Positions 3,227-62,200 of a stretch of DNA of 64,000 nt are shown piece after piece. The translations under genes and the position numbers were made by a program. The notes under the pieces are model-generated. The model made no database searches. It saw only the letters and a program-made list of their open reading frames with translations, and was not told where the DNA came from. Each line of letters starts with the position of its first letter. Within the stretch, counting starts at the first letter, position 1. The stretch comes from a virus: positions 1-64,000 of the IMG/VR virus record IMGVR_UViG_3300035670_000130. The stretch is one strand, 5' to 3'.

Positions 3227-4425
3227 GGTGTTGGTAATCCTGATGTATCTTGTTGACAGTAAACAATAGTGCCATCAGCAGGGATAGGGCTATAGGGATT
3301 GGGAAGACTGGACGTATCCTGTTGACAGTAGAGAACAGTTCCATCGGCAGGAATAGGACTATAGGGATTGGGGAGGCTGGACGTATCTTGGGCACAATAC
3401 GTTATTGGCTGTACATAAAAGTCACTAGCATCCTGTGGGCAATATCCAGTATCCGTCTGTGTACTGGTAACAATCGTAAAGTCAATATTAAAGAAATTAG
3501 AGGTATTCTGCGGGCAGTAATTGGTGTCAACCTGTTTCTGATCCTGATTCCCAATTGCATAATCGGGAATAGTTTGTGGACAGTAGCTGCTGTCGGTTCC
3601 ACTGTAAACAATAGTGAAATTAATTGCGTAATCAGGTACGACCTGTGGACAGTAGTACAACCAGTTGGGATCTGGGATGATAGTGTAATCAGGTAAAACC
3701 TGTTGACAGTAGTAAGGCCAATCAACCTCAACTCTCCGTGCTGGGCCATTCGGATAAATGTCTTCCCATTTGCCAGTGACAATAATTTTGTAGTCAAGAT
3801 TAGTGAATTGGTTAACTGCACGACCTCGGTTTAACCCGAAGAATGCCTGTGCCCATTGACCTCCACGACCATAGGCATCTAAAACCTGGATTTTACACAT
3901 CAACCCATTCTTAATAGCCTTTCGTACCGCCGCATAACCTGGGTCGGTATGAACCCATGCGCCACTAGCTGTTCCACTTGCCGTAATACCGGACACACGA
4001 CCTGCGATTTTCCTATTAGAAAAACCCTGATCAGAGAAAAAGTTCATCGCATTGTCGGCATTGACGACCTTTGCGGAGAACAACGGGATCGGGGTGTCCA
4101 GTGTGCATCTACTGCCAGGATAAATACCAGCGGTGGAAGGGAGAATGGGAATTGTCGTCTCCCCAGGTTCCACTACGTCAGCTAAAAATACAGAGAGTGG
4201 ATTTGCTTCAGTCCCAAAATTAAGCCTGGTGCCCTCATAAAGCCGGTAGGTAGAACCAGACTGGAGGATAATCTCTTCATCGCCAGGCTGGACAAACCAG
4301 TCCAAGACGAGCGTTTCTGAAGGGATAGGGCTACCAAACCGATATGGTTCCGACAGGAAAACCTTGGTCTGCTGACCAATGTTGTACCTGCTGGTATCAT
4401 TCAGTTCGGAGTATTGCCTAGACAT
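3223..4425 (-). CDS. Tail tube-like structural protein, long paralog with C-terminal YC(P/Q)Q repeat extension
   Basis: 400-aa ORF. The N-terminal ~230 aa are clearly homologous to the 4435-5133 product (MSRQ...RYNIGQQTK.FLSEPYR.G...LNFGTE...SGAW..DPG.A...AIK.G..CKIQVLD..GRGGQ). The C-terminal ~170 aa carry about 9 YCPQ/YCQQ/YCAQ units. The tube-like assignment is inference. Confidence 0.65.
   Translation of the reverse strand: MSRQYSELNDTSRYNIGQQTKVFLSEPYRFGSPIPSETLVLDWFVQPGDEEIILQSGSTYRLYEGTRLNFGTEANPLSVFLADVVEPGETTIPILPSTAGIYPGSRCTLDTPIPLFSAKVVNADNAMNFFSDQGFSNRKIAGRVSGITASGTASGAWVHTDPGYAAVRKAIKNGLMCKIQVLDAYGRGGQWAQAFFGLNRGRAVNQFTNLDYKIIVTGKWEDIYPNGPARRVEVDWPYYCQQVLPDYTIIPDPNWLYYCPQVVPDYAINFTIVYSGTDSSYCPQTIPDYAIGNQDQKQVDTNYCPQNTSNFFNIDFTIVTSTQTDTGYCPQDASDFYVQPITYCAQDTSSLPNPYSPIPADGTVLYCQQDTSSLPNPYSPIPADGTIVYCQQDTSGLPTP
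3251..3388 (-). repeat. 69-bp tandem repeat (2 near-identical copies plus degenerate copies upstream) inside the 3223-4425 CDS
   Basis: tgttgacagt recurs at 3251 and 3320, with tgggcacaat at 3389. Each unit encodes YCQQDTSSLPNPYSPIPADGT(V/I)(L/V). Confidence 0.9.
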
Positions 4426-19890: not shown

Positions 19891-21210
19891 TTAAACCTCC
19901 TTGAGCCAGTCTCGCCATAACAGGATGAAATCATAATCTTTTTTGCGTTTTTGTCCATCAATCAACTCCATTGCACGCTTGAATTTAGAGGGATTGAGGG
20001 TAACACAGCAACCAGCAGACCACTGACCAATAGAACTAAAATGAGACAACGTGCCATTAGTGGTGTGCCAGTTAACCCCCCGCCAATTTTCAGCGGTAAC
20101 TTTGTCATCTCGCATAAAATTGCGATTCCGATCTCTGACCAATCGTGCAGTTCCAACCTGAACCATAGCGGATTGGCTTTTGTGCAAACCCCTCGCCCAG
20201 AGTCCTTTGTGATAGCCAACATCTAGTCGTGCGGCCCCGCCAGGAACCATTGGTCTATCCGTATAATATCGGCCCGGCTCCGTCGTTGATTGAGCAATCC
20301 AGGAGATTATGGGCTGCCCACCGCTGAACTTCAGTAGCACCATGCAATCATTCCATTGATCCGGGGTATCATTATTAGCAGTTCCATCGGGATTGACCCC
20401 CTCAAGACCGATGATGTTATAAGTGCCATCGGTCAACAATGGATAACCCCTCTTTTGACATACTGCTACAATACGTTCCGCCAACGTGGCTGGTAATTGA
20501 TCTGCATCCTTCTTTACCAGAACCTTTTTGCCTTTTGATAGAAGACGGAGTGAACCCTCTCCTACTAAATTGGGAAATTCTAGATAATTACTGCGTTTGA
20601 ACTCAATCCACGCAGATGACGTAAGCGCACCAGGAATACCGTCTACGGTCAGACTCGTCCCCATCACGTTATTTAACTCACGTTGAATAACCTGTACATG
20701 AGTTACGTTTTTAATATCAAGAATAGAAACAGGGCACTTATAGCAAAAAGCAAAATCATCAATGCTAGAAACGGGATTAATTGACTCATAAAAACGATGC
20801 CTTCCGACGGAGCCAATGATATGAAAAGAGCGATTAAACCGATCAACAACAGAAGGAGATGCTGTCGTTGGATTTAGATAGTGATCGGCACCCGCCATCG
20901 GGGTATTGATGCGAAAAGATAGGTACTCTTCTAGGATAGAAAGATAGTGAGAAAGATGCTCACGGGGATTTTCCATCCATTGCTGAATGAGATCGTAGTT
21001 GGGATCATCTTTATTCAAGCAGCTAAATTGCTGGGCCTGTTGGACAACCATAGCTGGATTTGCCGACCAACCATAACGGGGAGATCGTAAAGCACGTGTA
21101 ACAATGACACCCAAGACCGCAATGCGACCCTCTTCCGATTCTCCCCGAGACTCAGCCTTTACGACTGCGGCGATTAAAATTTTTTCTGATTCAGTTAAGT
21201 CAAACTGCAT
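19891..21210 (-). CDS. Multidomain endolysin (SleB-like cell-wall hydrolase + peptidoglycan-binding domain + C-terminal domain)
   Basis: 439 aa. N-terminal AESRGESEEGRIAVLGVIVTRA...QQFSC resembles Hydrolase_2/SleB. A central LTVDGIPGALTSSAW resembles PG_binding_1. The C-terminal part carries a SAGCCV motif. Confidence 0.75.
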   Translation of the reverse strand: MQFDLTESEKILIAAVVKAESRGESEEGRIAVLGVIVTRALRSPRYGWSANPAMVVQQAQQFSCLNKDDPNYDLIQQWMENPREHLSHYLSILEEYLSFRINTPMAGADHYLNPTTASPSVVDRFNRSFHIIGSVGRHRFYESINPVSSIDDFAFCYKCPVSILDIKNVTHVQVIQRELNNVMGTSLTVDGIPGALTSSAWIEFKRSNYLEFPNLVGEGSLRLLSKGKKVLVKKDADQLPATLAERIVAVCQKRGYPLLTDGTYNIIGLEGVNPDGTANNDTPDQWNDCMVLLKFSGGQPIISWIAQSTTEPGRYYTDRPMVPGGAARLDVGYHKGLWARGLHKSQSAMVQVGTARLVRDRNRNFMRDDKVTAENWRGVNWHTTNGTLSHFSSIGQWSAGCCVTLNPSKFKRAMELIDGQKRKKDYDFILLWRDWLKEV

Positions 21211-21235: not shown

Positions 21236-21535
21236 TTATTCTAATTTGATTAACTGACCAACGGAAATGCCTTTGGTGTGACTTTGAACAACTACCCCAG
21301 CACCAAGGCGGGGATCGTTGCAGGCAACCCACTTGGCAGGATGCAACTCATGAGCGAGAGCGCAAAAAAGCCAGATGGGGCCACGACCACTAAGCACAAG
21401 ACCCTGGTCAAAGGAGAGTCCCAGTTCAGCCAACTGGGAAACAGCACCAGCGAGGGAAGAAGGTTCGATGACTCCACCGGGAATAGAAAAGTCAATCACC
21501 GCAAAACCATCAAACTGCTCAAGACTGAAGTCCAT
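21236..21535 (-). CDS. csx3: Csx3/Crn3-family protein (CRISPR ring nuclease homolog)
   Basis: 99 aa. GLVLSGRGPIWLFCALAHELHPAKWVACNDPRLGAGVVVQSH aligns almost residue for residue with my recollection of A. fulgidus Csx3: GVVISGRGPIWLHCFLAHKYAHTPFVAVYDPRLGAVVVQSH. Confidence 0.8.
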   Translation of the reverse strand: MDFSLEQFDGFAVIDFSIPGGVIEPSSLAGAVSQLAELGLSFDQGLVLSGRGPIWLFCALAHELHPAKWVACNDPRLGAGVVVQSHTKGISVGQLIKLE

Positions 21536-21563
21536 AAAGTTCCTTTCAAATCAACACCCCTAT

Positions 21564-21845
21564 TTAACAACAGGGGTGGAAAAGGGGTTTTCCGAATTCC
21601 GAAAGAATAGTATCAACTTGTTTTGGGTCAAGCTGAAACCATTCTCCGACCGAGCAACGATAATGAAAACCCTTGTGAACAGAGGACTCCAGCAGACGGG
21701 CTTTCTGTGGTGAAAATGGGCCGGCAAAAGCCACTAAAGACAGGGAGGTAGGAGAACCAGTCTGAAGCTGTTTAATCCGTCGTCCCACATCCTTTGCTAT
21801 CCCGACCTTATAATGTGTTCCGTTGCTCAGGAGGTAAACATACAT
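21564..21845 (-). CDS. T5orf172 / MUG113 (GIY-YIG-like) domain protein
   Basis: MYVYLLSNGTHYKVGIAKDVGRRIKQLQTGSP..L......E..VH..F...R..GEWF matches the T5orf172 pattern. ATG 21845 overlaps the KilA-N stop as TGATG. Confidence 0.75.
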   Translation of the reverse strand: MYVYLLSNGTHYKVGIAKDVGRRIKQLQTGSPTSLSLVAFAGPFSPQKARLLESSVHKGFHYRCSVGEWFQLDPKQVDTILSEFGKPLFHPCC

Positions 21846-22594
21846 CAATTGATCCAATTCATTTCACGGTGGTAAAACGACTTAGAAACGCAATAATCCC
21901 TGACAGCATTTTCAACACCTGGGTGCCTTGCAGGGTACATATTTGCACCAATTTGTTTTGAGCTTGACGTAGAATAGCGTTTGTCTTGCCCGATCATCAA
22001 ATCCCCATACAGAGCTTTAACGTGACGGCCTAGGGCAGACTCATAATTAGATGGAACATTAAATCCAAGACGAATTGCGACATCAACAACCCCCTCGTAT
22101 TCTGGAATACCAGTAGGTTTTAATAGTTTTTGCTGACTGGCTAAATAACGATTCCCCAAATGGACTTTAGCCAATTGAGCCAATTGCAGATCGCCATTTT
22201 CAACAAAAAACTTGATGGCTTCCATTTCAGTTTGAATGACCAGCGGCTCAATAAAATTAGATACTGGTTCGTTTAATGTTGTGACCCCAGACTGCATCAA
22301 GTTAAAAATATGGGCATCGCACCACACGGCAAACGAAGGACTAATCCATCGTGCAAGATTGATTGCTAAGCTTGGATGCCCCCAGGTTCCACCGTTTCCC
22401 CCTTCCTCTGAGTTAACTACCTCAGATGTGAGGGAGTTAGATAAAGCCTCCAGGTATTCTTGAGTTTGCTTGAGTCGCATCCAGTTATCAATTCGCTTCC
22501 CATTGGCTTGGCACATCTGGGTCAGGTTCACAAACCCATCAGTCCGACGTTGGATAACTGTGCCGTTGTAGTTAAAATTCTGTAAACTGTCCAT
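21845..22594 (-). CDS. KilA-N domain DNA-binding protein
   Basis: 249 aa with AGGAGG SD. NGTVIQRRTDGFVNLTQMCQANGKRIDNWMRL...GGTWGHPSLAINLARWISPSFAVW is the canonical KilA-N pattern. Confidence 0.8.
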   Translation of the reverse strand: MDSLQNFNYNGTVIQRRTDGFVNLTQMCQANGKRIDNWMRLKQTQEYLEALSNSLTSEVVNSEEGGNGGTWGHPSLAINLARWISPSFAVWCDAHIFNLMQSGVTTLNEPVSNFIEPLVIQTEMEAIKFFVENGDLQLAQLAKVHLGNRYLASQQKLLKPTGIPEYEGVVDVAIRLGFNVPSNYESALGRHVKALYGDLMIGQDKRYSTSSSKQIGANMYPARHPGVENAVRDYCVSKSFYHREMNWIN

Positions 22595-24977: not shown

Positions 24978-25528
24978 AACAGATTCTTTATTAAGCTTGG
25001 ATGTCCGGTATCCGCTGAGAGAATTACGCTGATTTTTTCTTCGGCTCTGGACAGCCAAGATTTTTGCATTTTTTCCACTAGCTCAACTTTTCGCAATGCG
25101 GTTTGACTGGTAGATTCAGTCCGTTCTACCCTAGCACGAAGATCGTCAAGTGTATCGTCGATCTGGGAAAAGCGAGGTTGTATTTGATTGTAAAGACCAA
25201 TTAGTCCCTCCTGGACTGCCTGTTTCGTGGATTCGTGATTTTCCTGCTTAAATCGCAACCTGCCTAACTCGACCGACTCTTCCTTTCGCCTTTCCGATTC
25301 CATCCTGGCTCGATTAACGAAAAATCCAACAACACCAGCGAGGATGAGGGCTAAGACCTCTCCACTGAACAATCCGTCGATCAATCTCTCTAAAATATTC
25401 TGACTGTTTGGAGTAGCCGTAACCGAAACAGCATAAGCCATGACAAAGATAAAGGCGAGAAGCACCCTTGTCGCAAAACTAGAGATAAACAGAATGATTT
25501 GTTTTAACTGTTCCACTGGAATATCCAA
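24938..25528 (-). CDS. Membrane / coiled-coil protein; start uncertain
   Basis: 196 aa. Two hydrophobic helices ([24 protein letters not shown] and [14 protein letters not shown]) are followed by a coiled coil. The start is TTG or GTG. It overlaps the terL 3' end and, convergently, the thyX 3' end. Confidence 0.5.
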
Positions 25529-28271
25529 CTAAAGGTGCATCACCATCAACAATAATTGTATTTCGTGGATTAGTCACTTGCTCAAAAGCCCCAGTGGCTG
25601 CGTCAACAATATCGTTTACCCTTGGCCGGCGCATACCATCGAAGGACTCTACTGCCGACAGGAATTCACCATTCCAGTCGCCTCTAATCAGAAAAACATA
25701 GCCGAGTCTCGCCTGAGTTGCGAGCGGCAAAGCCCTTTGCAACTTAGACTTATCTGGTTTAATTGCCTTGACATCGTAGCGAACATCAAGCTTTTCAATC
25801 TCCTTGGCAAAGGACTCTTCAACGATCTTGCCAGATGCTCCACCTTCCAATTCAAACCTGATCTTTGTCCTGACTCCATCAGCGATTGCACATCCCCTGA
25901 TCGGGCCGATCACTTCACCTCCTTTTACCTGCATAACTTGCAAGTCGAAGATGTAAATATTGGTGCCAATCATGCCCATCAGGCAACCTGCCGTAGAGCA
26001 ACTATCACTGCCTGCGTCCTCTCTTGCGGTGGCCGCCAAATCCCAAAATCTAATTTTAATGAGGGGTTCTCTCGGCAACTCTTCATAGTCAATAATCTGA
26101 AACCAGTTTCGATCAAAGACGATCCCAGCATCATGTCGGATTTTCCAGTTACCAAACAATAACCGTTGCTTCTCAACCTCCTCCAGGGAATTGAGATTGG
26201 ACAGATACTGCGGGTTGACCCGTAGCAACGCTGGGTTATCAAAAATACTAGCGGCAATAAAACTAAAGCTTTTGACCATATCGTCAAAAGTCACAAGTCC
26301 ATTAGATGCCTCGACCACCGGGGCTAAACTGTCGTAATGCTCCTCGATCAAAGCCTCCTTGGTGTCATCCCAATGAACCTGATTATTCAATCGCACGAAA
26401 TATCTTGTGACACCGCTTCTCTCTGGAATTGGATAACCAGTCTCCGGGTTCCACCACCATTGAATAAAATTAGCAACCCAAGAGTCTGCATCTGGGTTCA
26501 TCGTCGCCCGCACCTGGGGTTTTACTCCGCAACCAGAACGATTCCGGGAAAGCATATAAAAAAAACTCTCTTCACTAAAATGACACAATTCGTCAAAACC
26601 AATCCGTGCGAACTGCGCTCCCTGATATTCGTAAACCGTGTCTTCATGTCTAATATGACGAAAGGCTATCTGACTGTTGTATTTCTCCCAACGCCAAGTA
26701 GGGGGCTTACTCACGAACCTCCCACCAATATTGCGATACAAGTTCTTTGACTCATCCACCAACCCACCAGGATTAGTCAACTCGGGATAACTCTTCCTGA
26801 AAATTACGCAATTATATCCTATGGACTTAATATACTTTTGTTTAGCACTATCCAACAATAGAAATAGGCTGTTATGCGTTGTGTTGTAGCCGTCGCAAAC
26901 ATAAAGCCTGTTTGGATTGCTGACGACAATACATCTTGCGAAGTCAACATCGGTCGGCTCAATACTGACAAGTCCTTTTCCCGGCCATGAATTACCACCA
27001 TTGAACTGACCATGCGCCAACGCCTTCTCTCTTTTTCTTGGAAGAGAGAATAGCAGTTCAAGATGGTTTCCCTGAACAAACACAGTATAGGCAAGTTTTC
27101 CTTCTCTTTTTTCGCCGCAGTGGGTATAACACGGAGTTCGACTACCAATCCTTGCCATATAGCCAAGGCTTCTCACAAGATCCGAGACCTGCTCCGCAAG
27201 TCTAGGGCTTGTTGTAGTGTAAGAAACCTCTCGTTTTCCAACATCACCAACGGTTCCATCGGTGTCAAACAACCCTTGTGCAAGGTTATAGCGAAACTCA
27301 AGCGGAGCGGATAGGTAACCTTCGCTGAATTCCTTATCCCAGCACCTAACACCACGGTATCTATTGTTATGAACCCAAGCCTTAAACCATGGAACCCTCG
27401 TCAAATGAACCTGGGTAATCGGCAGATAGCCGTCTTGAACCGGCGGAATAGTTTTTTGAGCAGCCCCCTCTCCGGCAATTTCCTTGACCTTTTCAGCTAT
27501 AAAGTCATCAGTGGTAGTCAGTATAAAACTGCCGCCCCTCTCTTCCCCAAAATGACCATCACCAATCATCGCACCATAGACATAGGCTCTTTCGTTGTCC
27601 CTAAACGATCTTGCGGTAAATTGCAACGGAGCGTTTATCGGAAAAATAAACCTTCGTCCTTTTTTTGTTTCATTGATCAACCACTTGGTATCCCGGACTC
27701 TGGCTCTGGTAATGTAATTCTTGTTCCAGCCACGGGGGTCGAGATTTGAATAAACAAAATTCTCGCCATTGCAGGTTTTCCGTCTACTATTACACCGAGC
27801 TTCCCAAAACGACCACAGGTGATCCTCTGTAGCCTCTACCGACGTACCATCTTCAAATGTAAGCAAATAAAATTGCATCATTCCCCGATCTTGTATTTGC
27901 AATACCTCTTGGTATTGCCCGTCGGGATTCATTATTTTTTCGCCAACAGTTAAGTCAGAAAAGTCGATCCATTTACCATCCCAGCGCAAAACCTTAGTAT
28001 CCAAACCGGCAACGACATCTGGCACGGAGGACAATTCGACACCATGTCTTATGGCGTAGCCAAGCTTGGCACACCTATTTGCCTTACCGCTACCCGCAGC
28101 CCCGCCCACAAAAAGAACATCCGCCTCATGATGATACATCTGCTCTTGCTTGCCGGGTTGAGGCGGAGGCAGAGTCCAGTCGGCACCGGATCGGGAATCC
28201 GCCTTTGACTTATTGGCTGCCCCGATCCGCCGCTGGTTTTTAAGATTGAGTCGGCTGGTTAATGCGTTCAT
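25479..28271 (-). CDS. terL: Terminase large subunit, interrupted by an intein
   Basis: ATG 28271 (MNALTSRL). The Walker A FVGGAAGSGK is split from SLFLLLDSAKQKY...VIFRKSYPEL by about 404 aa. The C-terminal nuclease half includes IRFWDLAAT and GDWN. Confidence 0.85.
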   Translation of the reverse strand: MNALTSRLNLKNQRRIGAANKSKADSRSGADWTLPPPQPGKQEQMYHHEADVLFVGGAAGSGKANRCAKLGYAIRHGVELSSVPDVVAGLDTKVLRWDGKWIDFSDLTVGEKIMNPDGQYQEVLQIQDRGMMQFYLLTFEDGTSVEATEDHLWSFWEARCNSRRKTCNGENFVYSNLDPRGWNKNYITRARVRDTKWLINETKKGRRFIFPINAPLQFTARSFRDNERAYVYGAMIGDGHFGEERGGSFILTTTDDFIAEKVKEIAGEGAAQKTIPPVQDGYLPITQVHLTRVPWFKAWVHNNRYRGVRCWDKEFSEGYLSAPLEFRYNLAQGLFDTDGTVGDVGKREVSYTTTSPRLAEQVSDLVRSLGYMARIGSRTPCYTHCGEKREGKLAYTVFVQGNHLELLFSLPRKREKALAHGQFNGGNSWPGKGLVSIEPTDVDFARCIVVSNPNRLYVCDGYNTTHNSLFLLLDSAKQKYIKSIGYNCVIFRKSYPELTNPGGLVDESKNLYRNIGGRFVSKPPTWRWEKYNSQIAFRHIRHEDTVYEYQGAQFARIGFDELCHFSEESFFYMLSRNRSGCGVKPQVRATMNPDADSWVANFIQWWWNPETGYPIPERSGVTRYFVRLNNQVHWDDTKEALIEEHYDSLAPVVEASNGLVTFDDMVKSFSFIAASIFDNPALLRVNPQYLSNLNSLEEVEKQRLLFGNWKIRHDAGIVFDRNWFQIIDYEELPREPLIKIRFWDLAATAREDAGSDSCSTAGCLMGMIGTNIYIFDLQVMQVKGGEVIGPIRGCAIADGVRTKIRFELEGGASGKIVEESFAKEIEKLDVRYDVKAIKPDKSKLQRALPLATQARLGYVFLIRGDWNGEFLSAVESFDGMRRPRVNDIVDAATGAFEQVTNPRNTIIVDGDAPLVGYSSGTVKTNHSVYL
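26871..28082 (-). mobile_element. Intein with LAGLIDADG homing endonuclease in the terL P-loop (candidate class 3)
   Basis: Removing A78-N481 restores GGAAGSGK|SLFLLL. Block B is ATEDHLW and the C-terminus is YVCDGYNTTHN|S. LAGLIDADG motifs are YVYGAMIGDGHF and LAQGLFDTDGTV. The Trp (B12), Cys (ARCIVV, F4) and Thr (TTHN, G5) fit the class-3 WCT triad. The exact N-junction is uncertain: a block-A-like AGLDTKVL occurs 24 aa further in. Confidence 0.75.
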
Positions 28272-28545
28272 CTGGAATAGTGGACACAAAGGCACATAGG
28301 CTCTGCGTATCAAAAGGATCTGTTACGGGGGCTTGCAGTCCCAGTAGTTCCTCAATCAGTTTATTTACGGATGCGACTACACGCTCAAAAGACTCGACCG
28401 CAGAAATAGCTGAAACATGCAAAACCGCATTGTCTAACGACTCCAACGCAGTCTTGGTGGCAGATACAGCTTTAATTAACTCGGATCGAAGCGGTTCATC
28501 AACAACTGACAGGTTTTCAATCAAACGCTGATACTCTTCTTGCAC
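28240..28545 (-). CDS. Hypothetical protein upstream of terL (small terminase candidate by position only)
   Basis: 101 aa, GTG start with a GGGGGGA SD. It overlaps the terL start. Confidence 0.5.
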   Translation of the reverse strand: MQEEYQRLIENLSVVDEPLRSELIKAVSATKTALESLDNAVLHVSAISAVESFERVVASVNKLIEELLGLQAPVTDPFDTQSLCAFVSTIPDERINQPTQS

Positions 28546-30473: not shown

Positions 30474-30929
30474 GTTTCAGTCCCGATCACCGGGATTAAC
30501 CTTTTGATCGACTTGATCGCTTTCCCAAAAAATGGGTTTTTTTACAAGTTTCAGTCCTGATCACCGGGATTACCCTTTTGATCGGATTACTCTCTAATGT
30601 TTCAGTCCCGATCACCGGGATTAACCTTTTGATCGTTGCCTCTGGACTTCTTATCTTGTTTTCTAATCCACGGTTTCAGTCCCGATCACCGGGATTACCA
30701 TTTTGATCGGATGAATTACTGGATTAAGCCGATTTAATAGAGGCAGTTTCAGTCCAGATCACCGGGATTACCATTTTGATCGGCGACTAAAACTTCGGGG
30801 CTGATGCCCGGAAACTCAGTGTTTCAGTCCCGATCACCGGGATTACCCTTTTGATCGCCACAGTAATTGCTCGGTTCTGCCTGTGTTTAAACGTTTCAGT
30901 CCAGATCACCGGGATTACCCTTTTGATCG
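30474..30929 (-). CRISPR. CRISPR array, 7 repeats of 37 nt and 6 spacers (37, 14, 37, 36, 38, 35 nt)
   Basis: Repeats GTTTCAGTCCCGATCACCGGGATTA(A/C)C(C/A)TTTTGATCG occur at 30474, 30548, 30599, 30673, 30746, 30821 and 30893. There is an internal 5-bp hairpin TCCCG-ATCAC-CGGGA. The strand is inferred: the minus-strand reading ends ...GGGACTGAAAC and is co-directional with the nuclease gene. Confidence 0.93.
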
Positions 30930-32903: not shown

Positions 32904-33108
32904 ATCTGACATTCAAGAAATCAAGAAACTGGCGAAGGACATTACTACTCAGCTAGACCGCATAGAATCGTCCCTGGAAGCGACCAAGGACACAAAGACG
33001 ACAAAACCTACCTGGAGCAAATTTAAACACCTCGCAAACAGCTACATCTTCCCAGCAGTCATCGGGCTGGGACTCGGAATAATCTTTGTTACCCTACTGT
33101 TCCAATAA
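32896..33108 (+). CDS. Small tail-anchored membrane protein
   Basis: 70 aa with a coiled-coil N-terminus and a C-terminal TM segment, YIFPAVIGLGLGIIFVTLLF. It is translationally coupled to the RHH gene. Confidence 0.6.
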   Translation: MIESDIQEIKKLAKDITTQLDRIESSLEATKDTKTTKPTWSKFKHLANSYIFPAVIGLGLGIIFVTLLFQ

Positions 33109-33139
33109 GCACCAGCGGGAAAGTGGCATAATCAACCCG

Positions 33140-33165
33140 GCGTACCACCAAAGGTACGCTTTTTT
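33140..33165 (+). terminator. Rho-independent terminator
   Basis: GCGTACC-accaaa-GGTACGC followed by TTTTTT, 32 nt after the stop at 33108. Confidence 0.75.
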
Positions 33166-33220
33166 AACGACTAGACTAAGTCAATACATCAACCCACTCA
33201 GTACCCATAGTCTCCTTAAA

Positions 33221-33712
33221 GCTAATAAATATAATATATTTATTATATTATTAGTAATATAACTATTATATTTATTATTAATATATTACTTTTTATTCTA
33301 CTTCTCTCTTTTCTCTTTCCCGTACTCTTTTTTGTACGTTCGCATCTGTTATCTTTTCCTTGGGGCTTGTATCCCGCTCTCCGTCTACTTTTCAGCCATA
33401 CTATGTTGGTAGTACGTTAGCAGTTTATATCTTCTGTATCCCTTACTGTGTCTACTTTTCAGCCTTTTACTGTGTTTTTTCACCCTTGGGGTAATTTTTT
33501 TCTGAAAGGGTACTTTTTAGGGTGTACTACGAGTTCGACGATACCGATATTTACACAAGAATACTATACTGTTTAATACAGTACCCGACATGGTACAACC
33601 CCCTCCGTTCAAAAAAATATATCAGGGGGTCGTTTTTTTGACGATTTTGCCTCAAAGCTTTACGGGGAAAGGGTTCCAGGTGCTACAAATCTGCTAACGT
33701 ATTACCAACATA
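33221..33712. repeat. Non-coding element, copy A (AT-rich block + 22-bp inverted repeats), paralogous to 43351-43795
   Basis: AT-only low-complexity block at 33221-33298. TATGTTGGTAGTACGTTAGCAG at 33402-33423 has its inverse at 33691-33712 (21/22). A 30-bp imperfect direct repeat tgtatccc...gtctacttttcagcc occurs at 33368-33397 and 33435-33464. Confidence 0.8.
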
Positions 33713-33759
33713 CGCCTACAAGACATAGTAGAAATTGATACTTGAACTACTTTGGGTCT

Positions 33760-33786
33760 AAAAAACCCCGCAATCGCTTACGGGGT
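33760..33786 (-). terminator. Rho-independent terminator
   Basis: The minus strand reads CCCCG-taagcgattg-CGGGG followed by TTTTTT, about 40 nt after the stop at 33826. Confidence 0.65.
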
Positions 33787-33825
33787 GGTTACTTTGATTA
33801 TGTACCGGGCTTATTCTAGCCGAGA

Positions 33826-34563
33826 TTACTCGTCTTCGTCGTCGTAGTTTTCGTCTTCCCCCGCTGGTGCTAATAGATTTTTTGGGGTCGAACCGGGAAG
33901 TACATCGGATTCAGTAACTTCAAACCCATGGTCGGTCAAGAACTTGACGTACCTGTTTGCTTTTCCGACTACTCCGTAGTCCTCCAGGATGGACTGTCCG
34001 GCTTTTAGGAGTTCGACTGCGTCTCGGTAGTCCCGGCTTTGTCTTGGTTGCAAGATAATCACCAGCGGATTGCCATTTTCGTCCAACTGCGTAATCTGCC
34101 TTTCCGTTGACGGCATGTTCATAATCTCCTCAGCCCTGTCGATACTGGCATCGATGATGTTGGCGATTCGACTCATCTGGATCGATTGCCTTCTTTCCAT
34201 CTTTTCCAGGTCTTGTCCTCCCTTCCAGAGGTGATACGACTGGTGACGCTTCTTCCACTGGTACTTCTTCTCCCAGTGATACCAGTTGCCCAGTGTGTCA
34301 GCATCGACCCCCTTCACCAACATCAACTCCTCTTTACTTAAAGCATTAATACCTCCGTTCTTTTTTTGTTTTTTTTGCTTTTCAAGGTATTCATCGATTT
34401 CGTTGAAGTCCTGTTTGTGCAAGGCTTTGTACCTCTTGAATGCTCTTGTTGCTCCGCCAAGTCCGAACGGCAGATAGTACCTGGCAAACAGCAGGTAGTG
34501 TTCCCCAGATTCGTCCTCCTGCTTCTCCCATATCGGATCGGCTAACTCGATTTGCTCAGCCAT
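33826..34563 (-). CDS. Hypothetical protein with acidic C-terminus
   Basis: I prefer ATG 34563 (MAEQIELADPIWEKQEDESGEHY...), which has GGAG 6 nt upstream. The track ORF runs to 34734. The protein ends in ...GEDENYDDEDE. Confidence 0.6.
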   Translation of the reverse strand: MAEQIELADPIWEKQEDESGEHYLLFARYYLPFGLGGATRAFKRYKALHKQDFNEIDEYLEKQKKQKKNGGINALSKEELMLVKGVDADTLGNWYHWEKKYQWKKRHQSYHLWKGGQDLEKMERRQSIQMSRIANIIDASIDRAEEIMNMPSTERQITQLDENGNPLVIILQPRQSRDYRDAVELLKAGQSILEDYGVVGKANRYVKFLTDHGFEVTESDVLPGSTPKNLLAPAGEDENYDDEDE

Positions 34564-43350: not shown

Positions 43351-43795
43351 AGATTATATTATTATTAATAATATAAATAGTATTATTAATAATATATCTA
43401 AAGATATTGTTTTTACGTTATCTCTCTTTTTTCTATGTTGTCATGTGTTATCTTTCCCGACATCCCTCTATCCCTTGCACGGCAACGGTTCCGGGTGTAT
43501 TATGTTGGTAGTATGTTAGCAGTTACCAGCCCCCTGTGTCCCTTACTACGACTATCTTCTGGCGTTTTCTCTCCTTTTTCCTCCACTACCCCATATTTCC
43601 CTAAATACCTATACTTATTAATGTTCTAGATACATTGATACGGTCTATCTCTTGGGATGAAAAATATATTAGGGGAGCGTCAAAAAAAAGCGATGGTACA
43701 GTCAAAACCCTTTCCCGCTGGTATTTGTACCCGCTAACAAACTGCTAACAGTATTACCACAGACCCCTGATTTTTGCTAACATACTACCAACATA
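43351..43795. repeat. Non-coding element, copy B (AT-rich block + 22-bp inverted repeats), paralogous to 33221-33712
   Basis: AT-only block at 43351-43412. TATGTTGGTAGTATGTTAGCAG at 43501-43522 has its inverse at 43774-43795 (21/22). Shared blocks with copy A include tgttatctttcc and tgt(a/g)tcccttact. Confidence 0.8.
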
Positions 43796-47570: not shown

Positions 47571-48195
47571 GCAAAGCATTAACTACAACCTTCCTGAACC
47601 TACCCCTATTTCCAATAACTCTCCGAGCATCCATGACTTGGTAGTCGCCGATTTATCTGAACGAAAGCAGTTTGGCTTGCAGAAATACGGCACTTTATTG
47701 CAAGCCAATAATGGACGCACTGGCTTGGTTGATGCCTACCAGGAAATATTAGACCTGTCAGTTTATTTACGGCAGTGTTTAGAGGAATCTAAGCCTGTTG
47801 ACACCGCCGATCCTTTTACTGAATTAGTAGAACTAAAGCGGCAAGAACGGGATCTGGCAGACAAAATCAAGCTGGCTCAGGAAAAGGCTATTGATGCCGC
47901 CATGGAGCTAGGTAAAGTAGGTCAAATTGCAGTAGTCAATGGCGCAAAAGTTGCCTTTAAGTTGGTGACAGTTAAGCCCAAGTCGCCAATGATTACAGCA
48001 CTACATGAAGACATTACGGAAATGAAGATGGACTTAGAGGTTCTTCATGCCAAACGTTTAGCAGAGCTTCGAGCAGAAATAGATTCTTTATTGACCAGTG
48101 AGGTCATTGAAGAGCTAGAAGAAAAACTGCAAGAAGAAACAGAAAAATTGGTTGGTGAGAAAAAGCCTCAGATTGCAGTTACTCTACCAAAGTAG
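47563..48195 (+). CDS. Hypothetical protein, N-terminal nucleotide-pyrophosphohydrolase-like segment + coiled coil
   Basis: 210 aa. DLSERKQFGLQKYGTLL...LVDAYQEILDLSVYL resembles phage dATP/dGTP pyrophosphohydrolase N-domains (weak, memory-based). Confidence 0.5.
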   Translation: MTEQSINYNLPEPTPISNNSPSIHDLVVADLSERKQFGLQKYGTLLQANNGRTGLVDAYQEILDLSVYLRQCLEESKPVDTADPFTELVELKRQERDLADKIKLAQEKAIDAAMELGKVGQIAVVNGAKVAFKLVTVKPKSPMITALHEDITEMKMDLEVLHAKRLAELRAEIDSLLTSEVIEELEEKLQEETEKLVGEKKPQIAVTLPK

Positions 48196-49249
48196 CCTTT
48201 ATCCTTTCCCACTCCCGCTGGTGTACCTCGTCGCCAATCCACTGGTTATAAACACTGGTATGCACAGCGTGGGAGTGCCGCATTTGCTTAGCCGCAAGCC
48301 TACTATCAAGTCCTAATGTGATAACCCTTCGTGCCCAACAGTGTCTCAGACTGTACGCATTGAAGGGTATTTTGTTGCGACCAAAGAATTTACTTACCTT
48401 TTGTCCATACTCGATATGAGATCGACCCTCTCGGATATTTGGCAGTTGAATGTTACCCAGGTCAAACAAGTCAAACCAGTGCGGATAATAAGGCCAGACT
48501 TTACCATCGACTGACTTGCCCTCTTTGACGTAACAAATACCAGCGGCGGCAAGGTAGTCATGATCAACGAAAAAGACTTCATGGTTCCTAAGTCCAAAAC
48601 TAGCCAGCATCCCATACACCCACCGCCAACCGGGGTTAGATATGGCTAGTCCAATCTCCAAGATGGTCTGGTCGTCCGGTAGCGTTCTCTCCCTCTTGTT
48701 GCCAGCATACTTACCACGAATATCAGATAGGTCTAATGTGATTCCAGCGTGTTTAGCCAACGCTCCGATCACCGTGCAATACTTTTTTCTGGTTCTACTA
48801 TTAGGCTCTGTCGTTTCCAGGATATGTGACCGTAATGCGACTGGGTCGAGTGTCAAGTCAGATGGCAGTCGTCGGATGACAGCATGGTAGTCTTTCTCCC
48901 ATGTGCCTTCTCGTTTATTGTCGTTTCCGTAAATATCCAGCCAGTATGATCGAAAACTGGCACAAATCGATAATAAGTCACTGGATGCTTGCTTAACTTC
49001 TATCCAGTCAGACCACTGGAATGTACCCAGCGTAAGGTCACTGCCTAGCTTGATTGCCAGTTTATATGCTTGATTGAATCCATCCCTTGAAGCCCGCAGT
49101 CCTAGCGACACCCTCTGCTGGTGCTTATCCTTTCGCCTAGCGTTTGGCTTTGGCGGCATAGTCGCAACAAGATACAGTCGGTCGCCTATTTGAGCAATGG
49201 ACACACCGATCCGTGCGGCTTTAAGCCGACTATTTAATTCTTCCAGCAT
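48179..49249 (-). CDS. int: Tyrosine recombinase / phage integrase
   Basis: 356 aa. Catalytic pattern is GLRNHEV (R), LRHCWARRVI (HxxR) and HTSVYNQW (Y). Confidence 0.85.
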   Translation of the reverse strand: MLEELNSRLKAARIGVSIAQIGDRLYLVATMPPKPNARRKDKHQQRVSLGLRASRDGFNQAYKLAIKLGSDLTLGTFQWSDWIEVKQASSDLLSICASFRSYWLDIYGNDNKREGTWEKDYHAVIRRLPSDLTLDPVALRSHILETTEPNSRTRKKYCTVIGALAKHAGITLDLSDIRGKYAGNKRERTLPDDQTILEIGLAISNPGWRWVYGMLASFGLRNHEVFFVDHDYLAAAGICYVKEGKSVDGKVWPYYPHWFDLFDLGNIQLPNIREGRSHIEYGQKVSKFFGRNKIPFNAYSLRHCWARRVITLGLDSRLAAKQMRHSHAVHTSVYNQWIGDEVHQREWERIKATLVE

Positions 49250-59239: not shown

Positions 59240-62200
59240 CTAAACTAACGCTTTCTCGGCACTGATTTTGCGTTGCCGTTCGATCTGCTTAGCTGACAAT
59301 CCAATGTCATTCGGGTCTTTGACTTGGATTGTTGTTTTGTTGTTGATAAACACGTTGCTTCCCCCGCTGGTATTTGTATTTGCCCAATTGACGTTTTTGC
59401 TATTATCCACAAAGCCACCGCCAGCAAAATTCTTGATTTTAACGTCTTGGCTCTTGATGCTTTGCCATGACTTGTACTGAAGATATTGAGTTGCTTCATT
59501 GGCAGGAATAACGTATTCGTCTTTGTTAAGGACAGCGAGAATAGGTTCTCGACCAGATTGCATCCGCTCTTTTTGCATGGCCTCCTGGACAGAGCCACCT
59601 TTTGCGAATCCAAATAATCCTAATGCGGCCCGTCCAATATCGCCAATCCAGTTGTTGGGGATGAAGCTTTTAGCTATCCCACCAGCTATGCCCATTAATC
59701 CAGCACCAATTCCACTCAAGGGGTTACTGTCAGCGGCTTTCGAGGCTACACCTCCTACGTGCGACTTTTGATTCCCGGACTGTGTTCCAGTTGCCGCAAG
59801 GGTTGATTTATTTCCTCCAAACAGATCAAAGATGGAGCCTGTTTTGCTAGTAACAGAACCCGATGAAGGGACGTAGCTAACATGGGTTTTTCCTTCTGTC
59901 GTACTGCTTACTATGGTTCCTCCACCGCTAACCCCGCTCTCTCCGAAATTGGTCACAATTTCGTCCAGCATTTCAGTTGCCATGTACAAGCTGTCGGTAA
60001 AGTCGCCAATCACTTTATCGGTAGCGATCTTGCCCTCCAGCATTGGTTCCATTAGTTTTTCGCCAAACGCCTTGAAAAAGTCACTGTCGATAGTAGAAGA
60101 TGCCGCTTCCGCCTGTTCGCCTAGTTCCGACAAGGATTGACTTGCACTTTCGGAAGCCAATCTAAACACATTACTTAAGATACTCGATTCTTGATTACCA
60201 CCAAATACAGAGGACTGATCAAAAGACCAATTTTGGTTCAGCGTTTTACCGTTAAACACCGCACCACTGCCAGTCAATTGTTTTTGGAAAGACTCTTGGA
60301 TTTTCTGGATAGAAGATTGGGTGACTCTTTCAAACCTATTGTCTGAACTGTATTCGCTGGTAGCAGGGGCTACCTCAATAACCCGTTGAATATCATCCCA
60401 GGCAGGAGAATCAATCAGTACCTGCATTACGCCACTTGATTGCATCAGTTGGCTTTCTGTCGCAGGAGACTGAAGCATATTTTGAAAGACAGAAGGAGTC
60501 TGCGTAGACTGTTGAACTTGCTTAATTGCCTCCATCATCCGTGTGACAACGACCTCTTTCTTCTCGCCCAGGTCATAGGTCGGAACCACCTGCATAGCTG
60601 ACTGACTATTGTCCCACGGGGTTAACTGAACGGTAGAGGACTCAGTGGTAAGCAATTGCAGTAGTTTGCTTTCGGCAGTTCTATCTTGTACAAGTTGAGA
60701 CTGAGTGATTCGGCTTTGTTCCTTCTCTACCGTCATGCTGGTAGACTGAGTAGGCACCAGCGGGGTGGATTGTGCAGACTTTCTGGCTGTATCTTCTAAT
60801 AATCGCTGGAATATGATCTCTTTTCCAGGACGACTAGACTCGATGTCACTCTCGACTGGGGCTACTTGAATCGCCGACTGAACATCATCCCAAGAAAAGC
60901 GATTCAGTCCATCCATCATCTCTGAATATTTTTGGATCAACTGGCTTTCCGGGGTGCGATCTTGAAGCAATCCGCTTTCCTCTTGTTCTACCAAGATGGT
61001 TTCCAGTGCCTCAAGCACCTGTCTCGTTTCCGAAGACATTATGCTCTCACGTTTGGAGTCAACCACCCGTTGAGCTTCTTCCCACATCATGCGTTCAACG
61101 GATGAGCTAACCGCAGAATATTTCTCAAGTAGTCTGCTTTCCGGTGCCTGCGCTACTGGGTTGTTGAGATAGATGCTTCCTGCTGATGCTTGAATGGATT
61201 CCTGGGCAACGGGGAAGTTTAGCTTGTTGGGAGAACTGGCGACATTTGGACTACTGGCGTTCGACTGCTGAGCATTAAACAGGAAGCTAAACAGCGCATT
61301 TTCTTTATTGACAGATCCAGACTCCGACTGATCCTGTTGTCGATTTCGCCCGTTACCCTGTGACGGCGGAGGTATATCCTCGTACCATTGCTTGCCTTCC
61401 GTCGGTTGCTCTGCTGGCAACACGGGATCTGGTACCGTTGGGGTTGCTACGGGAGTAGTCTCGGACGGAGTTGCGCTTTGATCTTGCTTGATTATTAATA
61501 CGTTTGGAGGCTGAGACTGGTTAACCGCCCGAGCGTCCGGTACTTCCTCTGCTGGTGCTACCTGAACGGCACCCTGTACATCGTCCAAGGAAGGCTGTTC
61601 TAGTTTTATCTCCGAAACGTTCTTTTCGATCTGCTGGCTTTCTGGAGTGCGCTCTTGGATTACGGTTGCTGGTTGCTCATCTGGTTCGACCTCAACTACC
61701 GGTTCGATGTCATCCAGTCCAAACGCATTGTTTTTCAATGACTCCCCAAACACCATTTCACTGAATAGCTCAACTCGTTCATTGTTGGCTTCCTGATTGA
61801 AGCTGTTTGAGGTGCTACCAAATTGACTTCGTAGTTCCCTAGTAGCTTGTTCGCTCAGTCCTCCAACTTGATTCCCGATTCCACTATTGATATTGACTAC
61901 CCCAGCGGCGACCTCCATCGAACCAACCTGAGATGGTAGCATTCCCTGGCTAGTCTGGATTGGCTGATACTGAGGGCCGTCAAGCCCGAGGATAGGAGCA
62001 ATAGCTTGAGCAATGAAATTCTGAAGCGGCTTTATTGTCAGTTGCTCCAAGATTACCCCTAGCACCATATTGCCAAGCTTCTTGAACGCATCTCCAATAC
62101 TGGTGGTATTGAGGATTACGTCTCGTAACTCAGAACTGAATGCCGCTAAAAACGGAGTCGCCTCGACAAAAGCCCGTTTGATGTTGAGCTTGTTGGCTTC

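Follow-up and report, generated by a model that had tools for sequence, protein, structure and literature searches.

The virus sequence considered here is a stretch of 64,000 nucleotides (nt), positions 1 to 64,000 of the IMG/VR record IMGVR_UViG_3300035670_000130, referred to below as the window. On its minus strand, which the preliminary description of this DNA had left unstated, the window carries csx3, a short open reading frame (ORF) that starts with ATG and encodes a protein of 99 residues. This protein almost certainly belongs to the Crn3 (Csx3) family of CRISPR-associated ring nucleases. An endolysin-like gene lies downstream of csx3, genes for T5orf172 and KilA-N proteins lie upstream, and a CRISPR array with a TnpB/Cas12f-like gene is found 9 kb away [Table 1]. 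The preliminary description had proposed that the csx3 product degrades cyclic tetra-adenylate (cA4) and thereby acts as an anti-CRISPR factor against type III systems.

Identity, predicted fold, and active-site residues of the phage Csx3

Two profile hidden Markov models (HMMs) recognize the csx3 product, Pfam PF09620 (Cas_csx3) with 85.2 bits (cutoff 21; E=2.8e-24) and the equivalog TIGR02579, "CRISPR-associated ring nuclease Crn3/Csx3", with 76 bits (cutoff 55.4; E=2e-21). Both matches span residues 39-97, and Cas_csx3 is the sole Pfam match of the protein. When the product is compared with PDB sequences by phmmer, chains of Archaeoglobus fulgidus AF_1864/Csx3 (AfCsx3) are the sole significant matches (E=1.8e-13), and the identity to wild-type AfCsx3 is 41% over the full length. 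The preliminary description had named an HMM search and a structure prediction as checks on its assignment; the first is borne out by scores above both curated cutoffs, and the second by the predicted fold discussed below. The peptide that it quoted, LVLSGRGPIWLFCALAHELHPAKWVACNDPRLGAGVVVQSH, is present letter for letter in the 99-residue translation. It had also aligned this peptide with the core of AfCsx3. The similarity holds, but the string KYAHTPF that it gave for AfCsx3 is that of the H60A crystallization mutant (PDB 6YUD), the wild type having KYHHTPF. This slip does not weaken the point being made, because the phage protein has a histidine (H65) at the position in question.

The AlphaFold2 model of the phage protein, built on an alignment, has a predicted local distance difference test score (pLDDT) of 89.8 and a predicted template modeling score (pTM) of 0.83. 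In a Foldseek search of the model against the PDB, the best 13 matches are all AfCsx3, with template modeling (TM) scores of 0.76-0.84 and a root mean square deviation of ~2.2 Å over 97-102 columns; the TM score to PDB 6YUD/6VJG is 0.83. The predicted fold is that of Csx3, a CARF-related α/β domain of ~100 aa. The α1 region is four residues longer in the phage protein than in AfCsx3 and forms the lowest-confidence part of the model. Membership in the Crn3 family is hence established as far as sequence and predicted structure reach. The sole significant structural matches beyond AfCsx3 are the cA4-bound filaments of Cat1 (PDB 9MUD/9MUE; TM ~0.7, E ~5e-4). This side observation, made with a predicted model, indicates that Cat1, a type III effector, senses cA4 through a reused Csx3-like fold.

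The residues that matter for catalysis and cA4 binding in AfCsx3 have been defined biochemically. In the dimer, H60 and D69 occupy opposite faces, and both are essential (Athukoralage et al., eLife 2020, PMC7371418). The R71A and H80A variants are strongly impaired; H57, H60, and H80 are absolutely conserved; and contacts to cA4 are made by S44, G45, R46, I49, and R71 (PMC7371418). We mapped these positions in two alignments, one with 12 homologs and another with wild-type AfCsx3 and all viral copies. S49, G50, R51, I54, H62, H65, D74, R76, and H86 in the phage protein correspond to S44, G45, R46, I49, H57, H60, D69, R71, and H80, respectively, in AfCsx3. Moreover, H62, H65, D74, R76, and H86 are invariant in wild-type AfCsx3 and all viral copies (7/7), as is the stretch S49-G50-R51-G52-P53-I54-W55, which forms the cA4-contacting loop. 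The expectation that the catalytic His and Asp would be present is consequently upheld in a proper alignment, where all catalytic and cA4-binding residues are found. The residues of both dimer faces are conserved, a pattern compatible with a head-to-tail tetramer around cA4.

By analogy with AfCsx3, dimers of the phage Csx3 would stack head-to-tail with cA4 sandwiched between their faces. The "D face" of one dimer would present D74/R76 and the S49-G-R51 loop, while the "H face" of the next dimer would present H62/H65/H86, presumably with Mn2+, and the cA4 ring would be cleaved to linear di-adenylates. The same assembly raises the question of whether the protein might instead be a cA4 sponge, which sequesters cA4 in head-to-tail filaments and for which cleavage is slow or secondary, as for Csx15. 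Crn3 does sandwich cA4 between dimers and forms pseudo-filaments (PMC7371418), and Csx15, with a similar head-to-tail assembly, is a good sponge and a slow nuclease (PMC13148439). A pure sponge, however, would not need the five catalytic residues that are invariant in all seven viral copies at 37-73% identity, and sponging is considered a poor strategy against the large amounts of cyclic oligoadenylate (cOA) made by type III systems (PMC13148439). We regard a sponge as unlikely. The conserved residues bear in the same way on the suggestion that the phage protein targets phage or host RNA, and not cA4, as an Mn2+-dependent deadenylase or exoribonuclease, which is how AfCsx3 was originally described. 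Deadenylation by AfCsx3 can be measured in vitro (PMC7371418), and the protein was crystallized with RNA (PDB 3WZI), but it binds cA4 much tighter than RNA, and its ring-nuclease activity is considerably higher (PMC7371418). The residues kept in the viral copies are those that contact cA4, and a role in RNA deadenylation appears highly improbable.

Viral setting, selection, and distribution of csx3

Scanning the ~70 ORFs of the 64-kb window with PHROG and Pfam profiles revealed phage genes throughout. These include genes for the large terminase (TerL), virion, tail, and baseplate proteins, NlpC/P60, and an endolysin-like Hydrolase_2 protein. Genes connected with nucleotides and replication encode an exonuclease, ThyX, PhoH, the small subunit of ribonucleotide reductase (RNR), dCTP deaminase, a single-stranded DNA-binding protein, a primase-polymerase/DUF3987 protein, and a ResIII helicase. 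Others encode a DNA methylase, KilA-N and T5orf172 proteins, and an XisA/C-like recombinase. The phage context claimed in the preliminary description is thus confirmed for all 64 kb by genes for terminase, virion, tail, lysin, and replication proteins. The same scans revealed no cas10, RAMP, CARF, SAVED, or DUF1874 family among these ORFs, and csx3 is the sole gene in the window related to type III signaling. This result rules out that csx3 is part of a phage-borne type III locus. The statement that csx3 is unlinked to any cas operon therefore stands for type III operons in the window, but it has to be qualified in view of the CRISPR array and TnpB/Cas12-like gene 9 kb off. The argument is unaffected by this module, because it does not use cOA signaling (see below).

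The closest isolate is Aphanizomenon phage CL131 (vB_AphaS-CL131, MG209611), with a TerL 38.6% identical to that of the window, and of the 128 phage records that match the virion protein, 122 are from cyanophages. Megablast with 13.5 kb around csx3 against 50,697 phage records detected no similarity at the nucleotide level. Given its cyanophage relatives, the host of the phage is very probably a cyanobacterium. The GC content of 46% and a 66%-identical partial TnpB labeled Synechocystis, taken together with the same relatives, point to a cyanobacterium that is possibly Synechocystis-like.

The region around csx3 is conserved in several related phages [Table 1]. The lysin gene lies directly downstream of csx3 in all four phage lineages in which the gene was found at this position (L001, the phage itself; L004/L005; L006; and L097), and the protein identities across these lineages are 100, 73, 68, and 62%. 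An identical Csx3 is encoded by a Logan contig of 27 kb and by JGI contigs that belong to the same phage, and no cas10, RAMP, or CARF-effector families were called beside csx3 in the phage relatives. For the three best-sampled lineages, the ratio of nonsynonymous to synonymous substitution rates (dN/dS) is 0.11-0.15 at a dS of 1.4-1.8 (Nei-Gojobori method), values that indicate strong purifying selection over a long divergence.

Table 1. Positions of csx3 and of the features discussed with it, numbered from the first nucleotide of the window.
Feature	Position	Strand	Basis or remarks
csx3/crn3 gene, stand-alone single-domain ring-nuclease homolog, 99 aa	21236..21535	minus	ORF, HMMs, model, residues, dN/dS
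AGGA Shine-Dalgarno-like motif (putative)	21541..21544	minus	5 nt 5′ of the csx3 ATG; read from the letters
Endolysin-like gene	19891..21210	minus	Pfam, PHROG; Hydrolase_2 N-terminal part and PHROG endolysin C-terminal part
Terminator-like hairpin (putative)	21555..21578	minus	consensus scan; 3′ end of the T5orf172 gene, ~20 nt before the csx3 start
T5orf172/MUG113 gene	21564-21857	minus	upstream of csx3
KilA-N gene	21845-22594	minus	upstream of csx3
CRISPR array	30474-30929	read on minus	seven 37-nt repeats; six spacers of 35-38 nt, one cut to 14 nt
Truncated 14-nt spacer	30585-30598		
TnpB/Cas12f-like gene, 559-598 aa	31027-32823	minus	OrfB_IS605 and Cas12f1-like_TNB domains

Upstream of csx3 the picture is different. 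DNA homology with the 73%-identical relative (L004) stops at position 21536, exactly at the csx3 start codon, and homology with L006 stops at 21592; csx3 is therefore the first gene of a conserved block that borders a variable region, and the terminator-like hairpin lies near this border. Genes for KilA-N and T5orf172 proteins are present in this lineage only, while L004 has ~1 kb of mostly noncoding DNA there, and the stretch looks like a mobile or variable insertion beside csx3. A scan for promoters and terminators around csx3 gave site counts no higher than in shuffled sequence.

The position at the edge of a variable region, next to two genes present in this lineage only, would fit a passenger gene, i.e., one taken recently from a host type III locus and lacking a role in the phage. 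This explanation is already disfavored by the occurrence of csx3 at the same position in four lineages at 62-73% protein identity, where synonymous sites are near saturation and the dN/dS ratios are low. In addition, the closest cellular homolog of the phage Csx3 is only ~56% identical, and the capture must be old for this reason. A passenger gene is, in our view, scarcely credible.

Csx3 is not confined to these lineages. An exhaustive search with the family profile gave 826 cluster representatives, of which several of the top scoring (P0017, P0018, P0024, P0025, and others) are 420-550 aa long with two separate Csx3-domain matches, i.e., a tandem or fusion arrangement. A single-sequence scan of IMG/VR with the phage Csx3 gave no match, and a second metagenome scan with a profile of the phage clade gave no further close members. 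A motif-based scan of 2.9 million IMG/VR contigs, on the other hand, yielded four further, distantly related stand-alone csx3 genes on contigs of 90-272 kb. In two of these (L008/L009) csx3 is flanked by genes for a UvsX-like recombinase, SbcCD, an endolysin, a primase, and RNR, and in the other two (L007/L010) by genes for jumbo-phage RNA polymerase β subunits, a head maturation protease, a Dda-like helicase, and the 7-deazaguanine pathway. No cas families and no arrays were found near csx3 in the four contigs.

In a neighbor-joining tree, which lacks support values, is built on a short protein, and is to be read as indicative only, the clade with the window's Csx3 is monophyletic and placed beside cyanobacterial Csx3 groups, while the IMG/VR copies are scattered. 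Their scattered positions suggest several independent captures. Cas neighbors are likewise missing around the relatives that come next to the phage clade in identity (52-56%), which lie beside genes for ParA-like, ArdC-like antirestriction, UvrD, Prim-Pol, or Dam methylase proteins and many small ORFs. One such case (L101; 4414-5409 and 7948-8238) is a 52%-identical stand-alone csx3 among small ORFs, an ArdC-N/MPTase-PolyVal antirestriction-type gene, and a UvrD helicase gene; this stretch looks like a conjugative element's leading region or like a phage, and Csx3 may be carried by mobile elements beyond phages. As a rough comparison, a CRISPR array lies within 8 kb of csx3 in 17 of 41 cellular Csx3 loci (at least 12 kb long) and in none of 13 viral or mobile-element-like loci.

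The spread of viral copies over very different phages, with GC contents from 29% to 56%, leaves room for a target other than CRISPR. The phage Csx3 would then degrade cA4 or a related cyclic oligonucleotide of a non-type III defense. A gene with a Tad2-like (Thoeris anti-defense 2) domain, which lies within 10 kb of csx3 in one jumbo-phage locus (L007 or L010, 29% GC), points the same way; it is not among the immediate neighbors of csx3, and we do not use it as evidence. Characterized Crn3 is, however, specific for cA4, which has been described only as a messenger of type III CRISPR systems (PMC7371418, PMC12409355, PMC13148439), and the cA4-contacting residues are unchanged in the phage protein. 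A non-CRISPR target is quite unlikely.

The type V-U2-like CRISPR module and other features of the window

The CRISPR array is located ~100 nt downstream of the TnpB/Cas12f-like gene on the same strand, and its 37-nt repeat has the consensus GTTTCAGTCCCGATCACCGGGATTACCCTTTTGATCG; the repeat is also written GTTTCAGTCCCGATCACCGGGATTA. A TnpB-like RuvC effector of about 550 aa beside an array, without adaptation genes, characterizes type V-U2 loci, and the module in the window has this arrangement. The best phage match of the TnpB-like protein is a CL131 "transposase" that lies beside the array of that phage, and the CL131 array locus has been assigned to type V-U2 (Sulcius et al., PMC6293099). 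The same gene and array module is present on two or three other phage contigs (L094 6001-8661, L095 1348-4008, and L096 6001-8336), with 13 and 9 repeats. Judged from its genes, the module is a known kind of feature of CL131-like cyanophages and is type V-U2-like. Type V systems do not signal through cOA. For this reason, and because in CL131 the module is not accompanied by Csx3 and in the window it lies 9 kb of unrelated genes away from csx3, we treat the module as independent of Csx3. That csx3 belongs to the nearby array is rejected as the main interpretation, as the array has a TnpB/Cas12-like partner gene, like that of CL131, and is found elsewhere without Csx3.

The repeat is of the cyanobacterial Cas6/type I-D hairpin class. 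The 25-nt 3′ core of the repeat (minus strand) is one base off 50 repeats of CRISPR1 on the Synechocystis plasmid pSYSA, which lies downstream of a type I-D cas operon. Exact matches to the repeat were absent from IMG/VR and the metagenome collection, and fuzzy matching found it only in the same phage (L001) and in pSYSA CRISPR1. It was present in none of the 80 cellular Csx3 loci. No targets of the spacers were found in the compared loci, nor in IMG/VR for three spacers.

The likeness of the repeat core to that of a host-type I-D array, and the presence of csx3 within the same 64 kb as this seven-repeat array, could be taken to mean that Csx3 tunes a hijacked response. In such a scenario, CRISPR RNAs (crRNAs) from the phage would be loaded into host type III complexes that attack rival phages, and Csx3 would curb the collateral damage caused by cA4, which would otherwise hurt the phage's own infection. 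Against this, in CL131 and three phage lineages the array invariably has a TnpB/Cas12-like gene immediately upstream in the same orientation, and this constant pairing means that it is best read as a self-contained type V-U2-like module. Moreover, csx3 is missing not only from CL131 but also from the stretches examined of the V-U2 loci L094 and L096, and neither the intervening 9 kb of unrelated genes nor the failed search for spacer targets speaks for a link. A tuner of this kind is very unlikely.

Other features of the window do not touch on Csx3. An ORF of 356 aa at 48179-49249 (minus strand) has XisAC_N/XisAC_2nd matches according to precomputed tables, while the Pfam copy used here gave no match; the XisA/XisC-type recombinase family is known from heterocystous cyanobacteria, and the ORF is a hint that the phage may be temperate and its host a cyanobacterium. 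The large terminase ORF (25479-28313, minus strand) encodes 944 aa, about twice the usual length, with a canonical TerL PHROG match only at residues 492-915. Profiles of other TerL, helicase, and primase proteins match its N-terminal half, and the ORF contains a LAGLIDADG_3 domain (E=2e-10). These features suggest that an intein or homing endonuclease was inserted or that the ORF is a fusion. Its CL131 match covers both the annotated small and large terminase genes of CL131. At the right edge, the ORF at 59240-64000 (minus strand) belongs to a gene that continues beyond the window (L092 10775-20774); this gene was called with the exceptional length of 5,797 aa and has a TMP_3 (tape measure) domain, and ORFs of 3,319-3,850+ aa are also present on the related phage contigs L094 and L095. 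The source contig is 79.6 kb long, and its recovered part past the right edge consists mostly of this giant tape-measure-like gene. Two very AT-rich intergenic patches of tandem repeats with periods of 21-23 nt are located at 33200-33300 and 43356-43408, one of them in a gene-poor stretch of ~1 kb (33100-33826), and could be origins or regulatory regions. No tRNAs and no Rfam matches were found in the window.

The phage Csx3 compared with known ring nucleases and its proposed role

Crn3 has been described in type III systems of euryarchaea and cyanobacteria (PMC7371418). The phage protein resembles the Crn3 of A. fulgidus (AF_1864; PDB 6YUD, 6VJG, and 3WZI) and of Methanosarcina mazei (MmCsx3) in its Pfam and TIGR family, size, single domain, predicted fold, and catalytic and cA4-binding residues. 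It differs from them in being virus-encoded, in a 64-kb stretch devoid of type III cas genes. This absence is a feature of the context rather than of the protein, and it is what separates the phage copy from cellular Crn3.

Among viral proteins, the closest parallel in proposed role is AcrIII-1, the viral DUF1874 protein whose cellular counterpart is Crn2, since AcrIII-1 is, and the phage Csx3 would be, a small stand-alone viral enzyme that destroys cA4 and so counters the ancillary effectors of type III systems. The folds are unrelated, DUF1874 in one case and the CARF-like Crn3 fold in the other. The preliminary description had anticipated this difference, and it agrees with Cas_csx3 being the sole Pfam match and Csx3 the fold matched. 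The mechanisms differ as well: AcrIII-1 works without metal and its products carry a cyclic phosphate, whereas Crn3 depends on Mn2+, releases A2-P, and needs assembly of one dimer with another. The phage Csx3 would at most be a functional analogue of AcrIII-1, not a member of its family. AcrIII-2, a viral SAVED protein, and the phage homologs of Csx16 and Csx20 provide precedents for the capture by phages of cellular folds that degrade or bind cA4. AcrIII-2 and Csx15 also assemble head-to-tail on cA4 as Crn3 does, but they belong to other protein families, and none of these proteins is a Crn3. The likeness to CL131, finally, is one of the phage and not of Csx3: the TerL relationship noted above, a TnpB-like protein 36% identical, and the type V-U2 array and TnpB module near the terminase gene are shared, while CL131 is without detectable Csx3 and shows no nucleotide-level similarity.

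Csx3 gave no tblastn match in GenBank phages (50,697 records), no match in PHROGs v4, and no match by fold search in BFVD. An HMM survey for Crn1-3, Csx15, Csx16, and Csx20 in 28,114 phage genomes reported AcrIII-1 in 36, Csx20 in four, and Csx16 in two, and Crn3 is not mentioned (Hoikkala et al. 2025, PMC12409355). The viral ring nucleases named in the ring-nuclease papers of 2025 and 2026 covered here are AcrIII-1 and AcrIII-2, and no report of a phage-encoded Crn3 was found in full-text literature searches, although reports may exist outside the literature covered. What is new is a bona fide Crn3 in a viral setting, with a predicted action like that of AcrIII-1 and a different fold.

The role that we consider probable for the phage Csx3 is the degradation of cA4, which would blunt type III signaling in the host and make the protein an anti-CRISPR. 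During infection, it would remove the cA4 made by host Cas10 when type III crRNAs recognize phage transcripts, and cA4-dependent effectors of the Csx1/Csm6/Can/Cat1 type would stay off. This proposal draws on the function of the family, the intact residues, the viral context, the purifying selection, and the recurrence of csx3 on mobile elements. It also draws on a precedent, in that MmCsx3 placed on an incoming plasmid gave partial relief of Csx1-mediated type III immunity (PMC7371418), and on the targeting of a related phage, since type III-B and I-D systems, with spacers against CL131 in several arrays, are present in the CL131 host (PMC6293099).

Several points weigh against this role. The relief provided by MmCsx3 was weaker and slower than that by AcrIII-1, and in the sole in vivo test of a Csx3 it was taken by the authors to fit a cellular rather than an anti-CRISPR function (PMC7371418). 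The catalysis by Crn3 needs association of dimers, and a high protein concentration may therefore be needed. In addition, csx3 precedes the lysin gene in a structural and lysis region that looks late, and not in an obvious early region, with promoter and terminator counts at the level of shuffled sequence. An anti-CRISPR would be expected to be expressed early, yet type III signaling elicited by late transcripts would still be countered. The role is, moreover, one that we infer from analogy. Each of the rival explanations discussed above is, taken alone, unlikely, and degradation of cA4 against host type III signaling remains the role we favor.

A bolder version of this proposal is distinctly improbable. 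It holds that Crn3 has been captured repeatedly by viruses and mobile elements, with a specialized subclade forming a new anti-CRISPR family. In the present phage, Csx3 would then uncouple crRNA targeting from the abortive defense triggered by cA4, such that the host CRISPR system is turned on competitors while its suicide branch is silenced.

Ring nucleases set the outcome of the type III response, that is, recovery, dormancy, or death of the cell. Viruses are known to exploit the switching off of cOA signaling through AcrIII-1 (DUF1874) and a viral SAVED protein, while Crn3 has so far been treated as a cellular off-switch. If active, the phage Csx3 would be the third or fourth independent fold that viruses are known to direct against cOA. 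It would also be a candidate anti-type III factor for cyanophages, whose hosts abound in type III and I-D systems, and would offer a natural test of whether the cooperative, concentration-dependent mechanism of Crn3 is fast enough for an anti-CRISPR. The gene is short and readily expressed, and its product can be assayed in systems that already exist. More generally, the finding means that metagenomic phages harbor ring nucleases that isolate-based surveys have missed.

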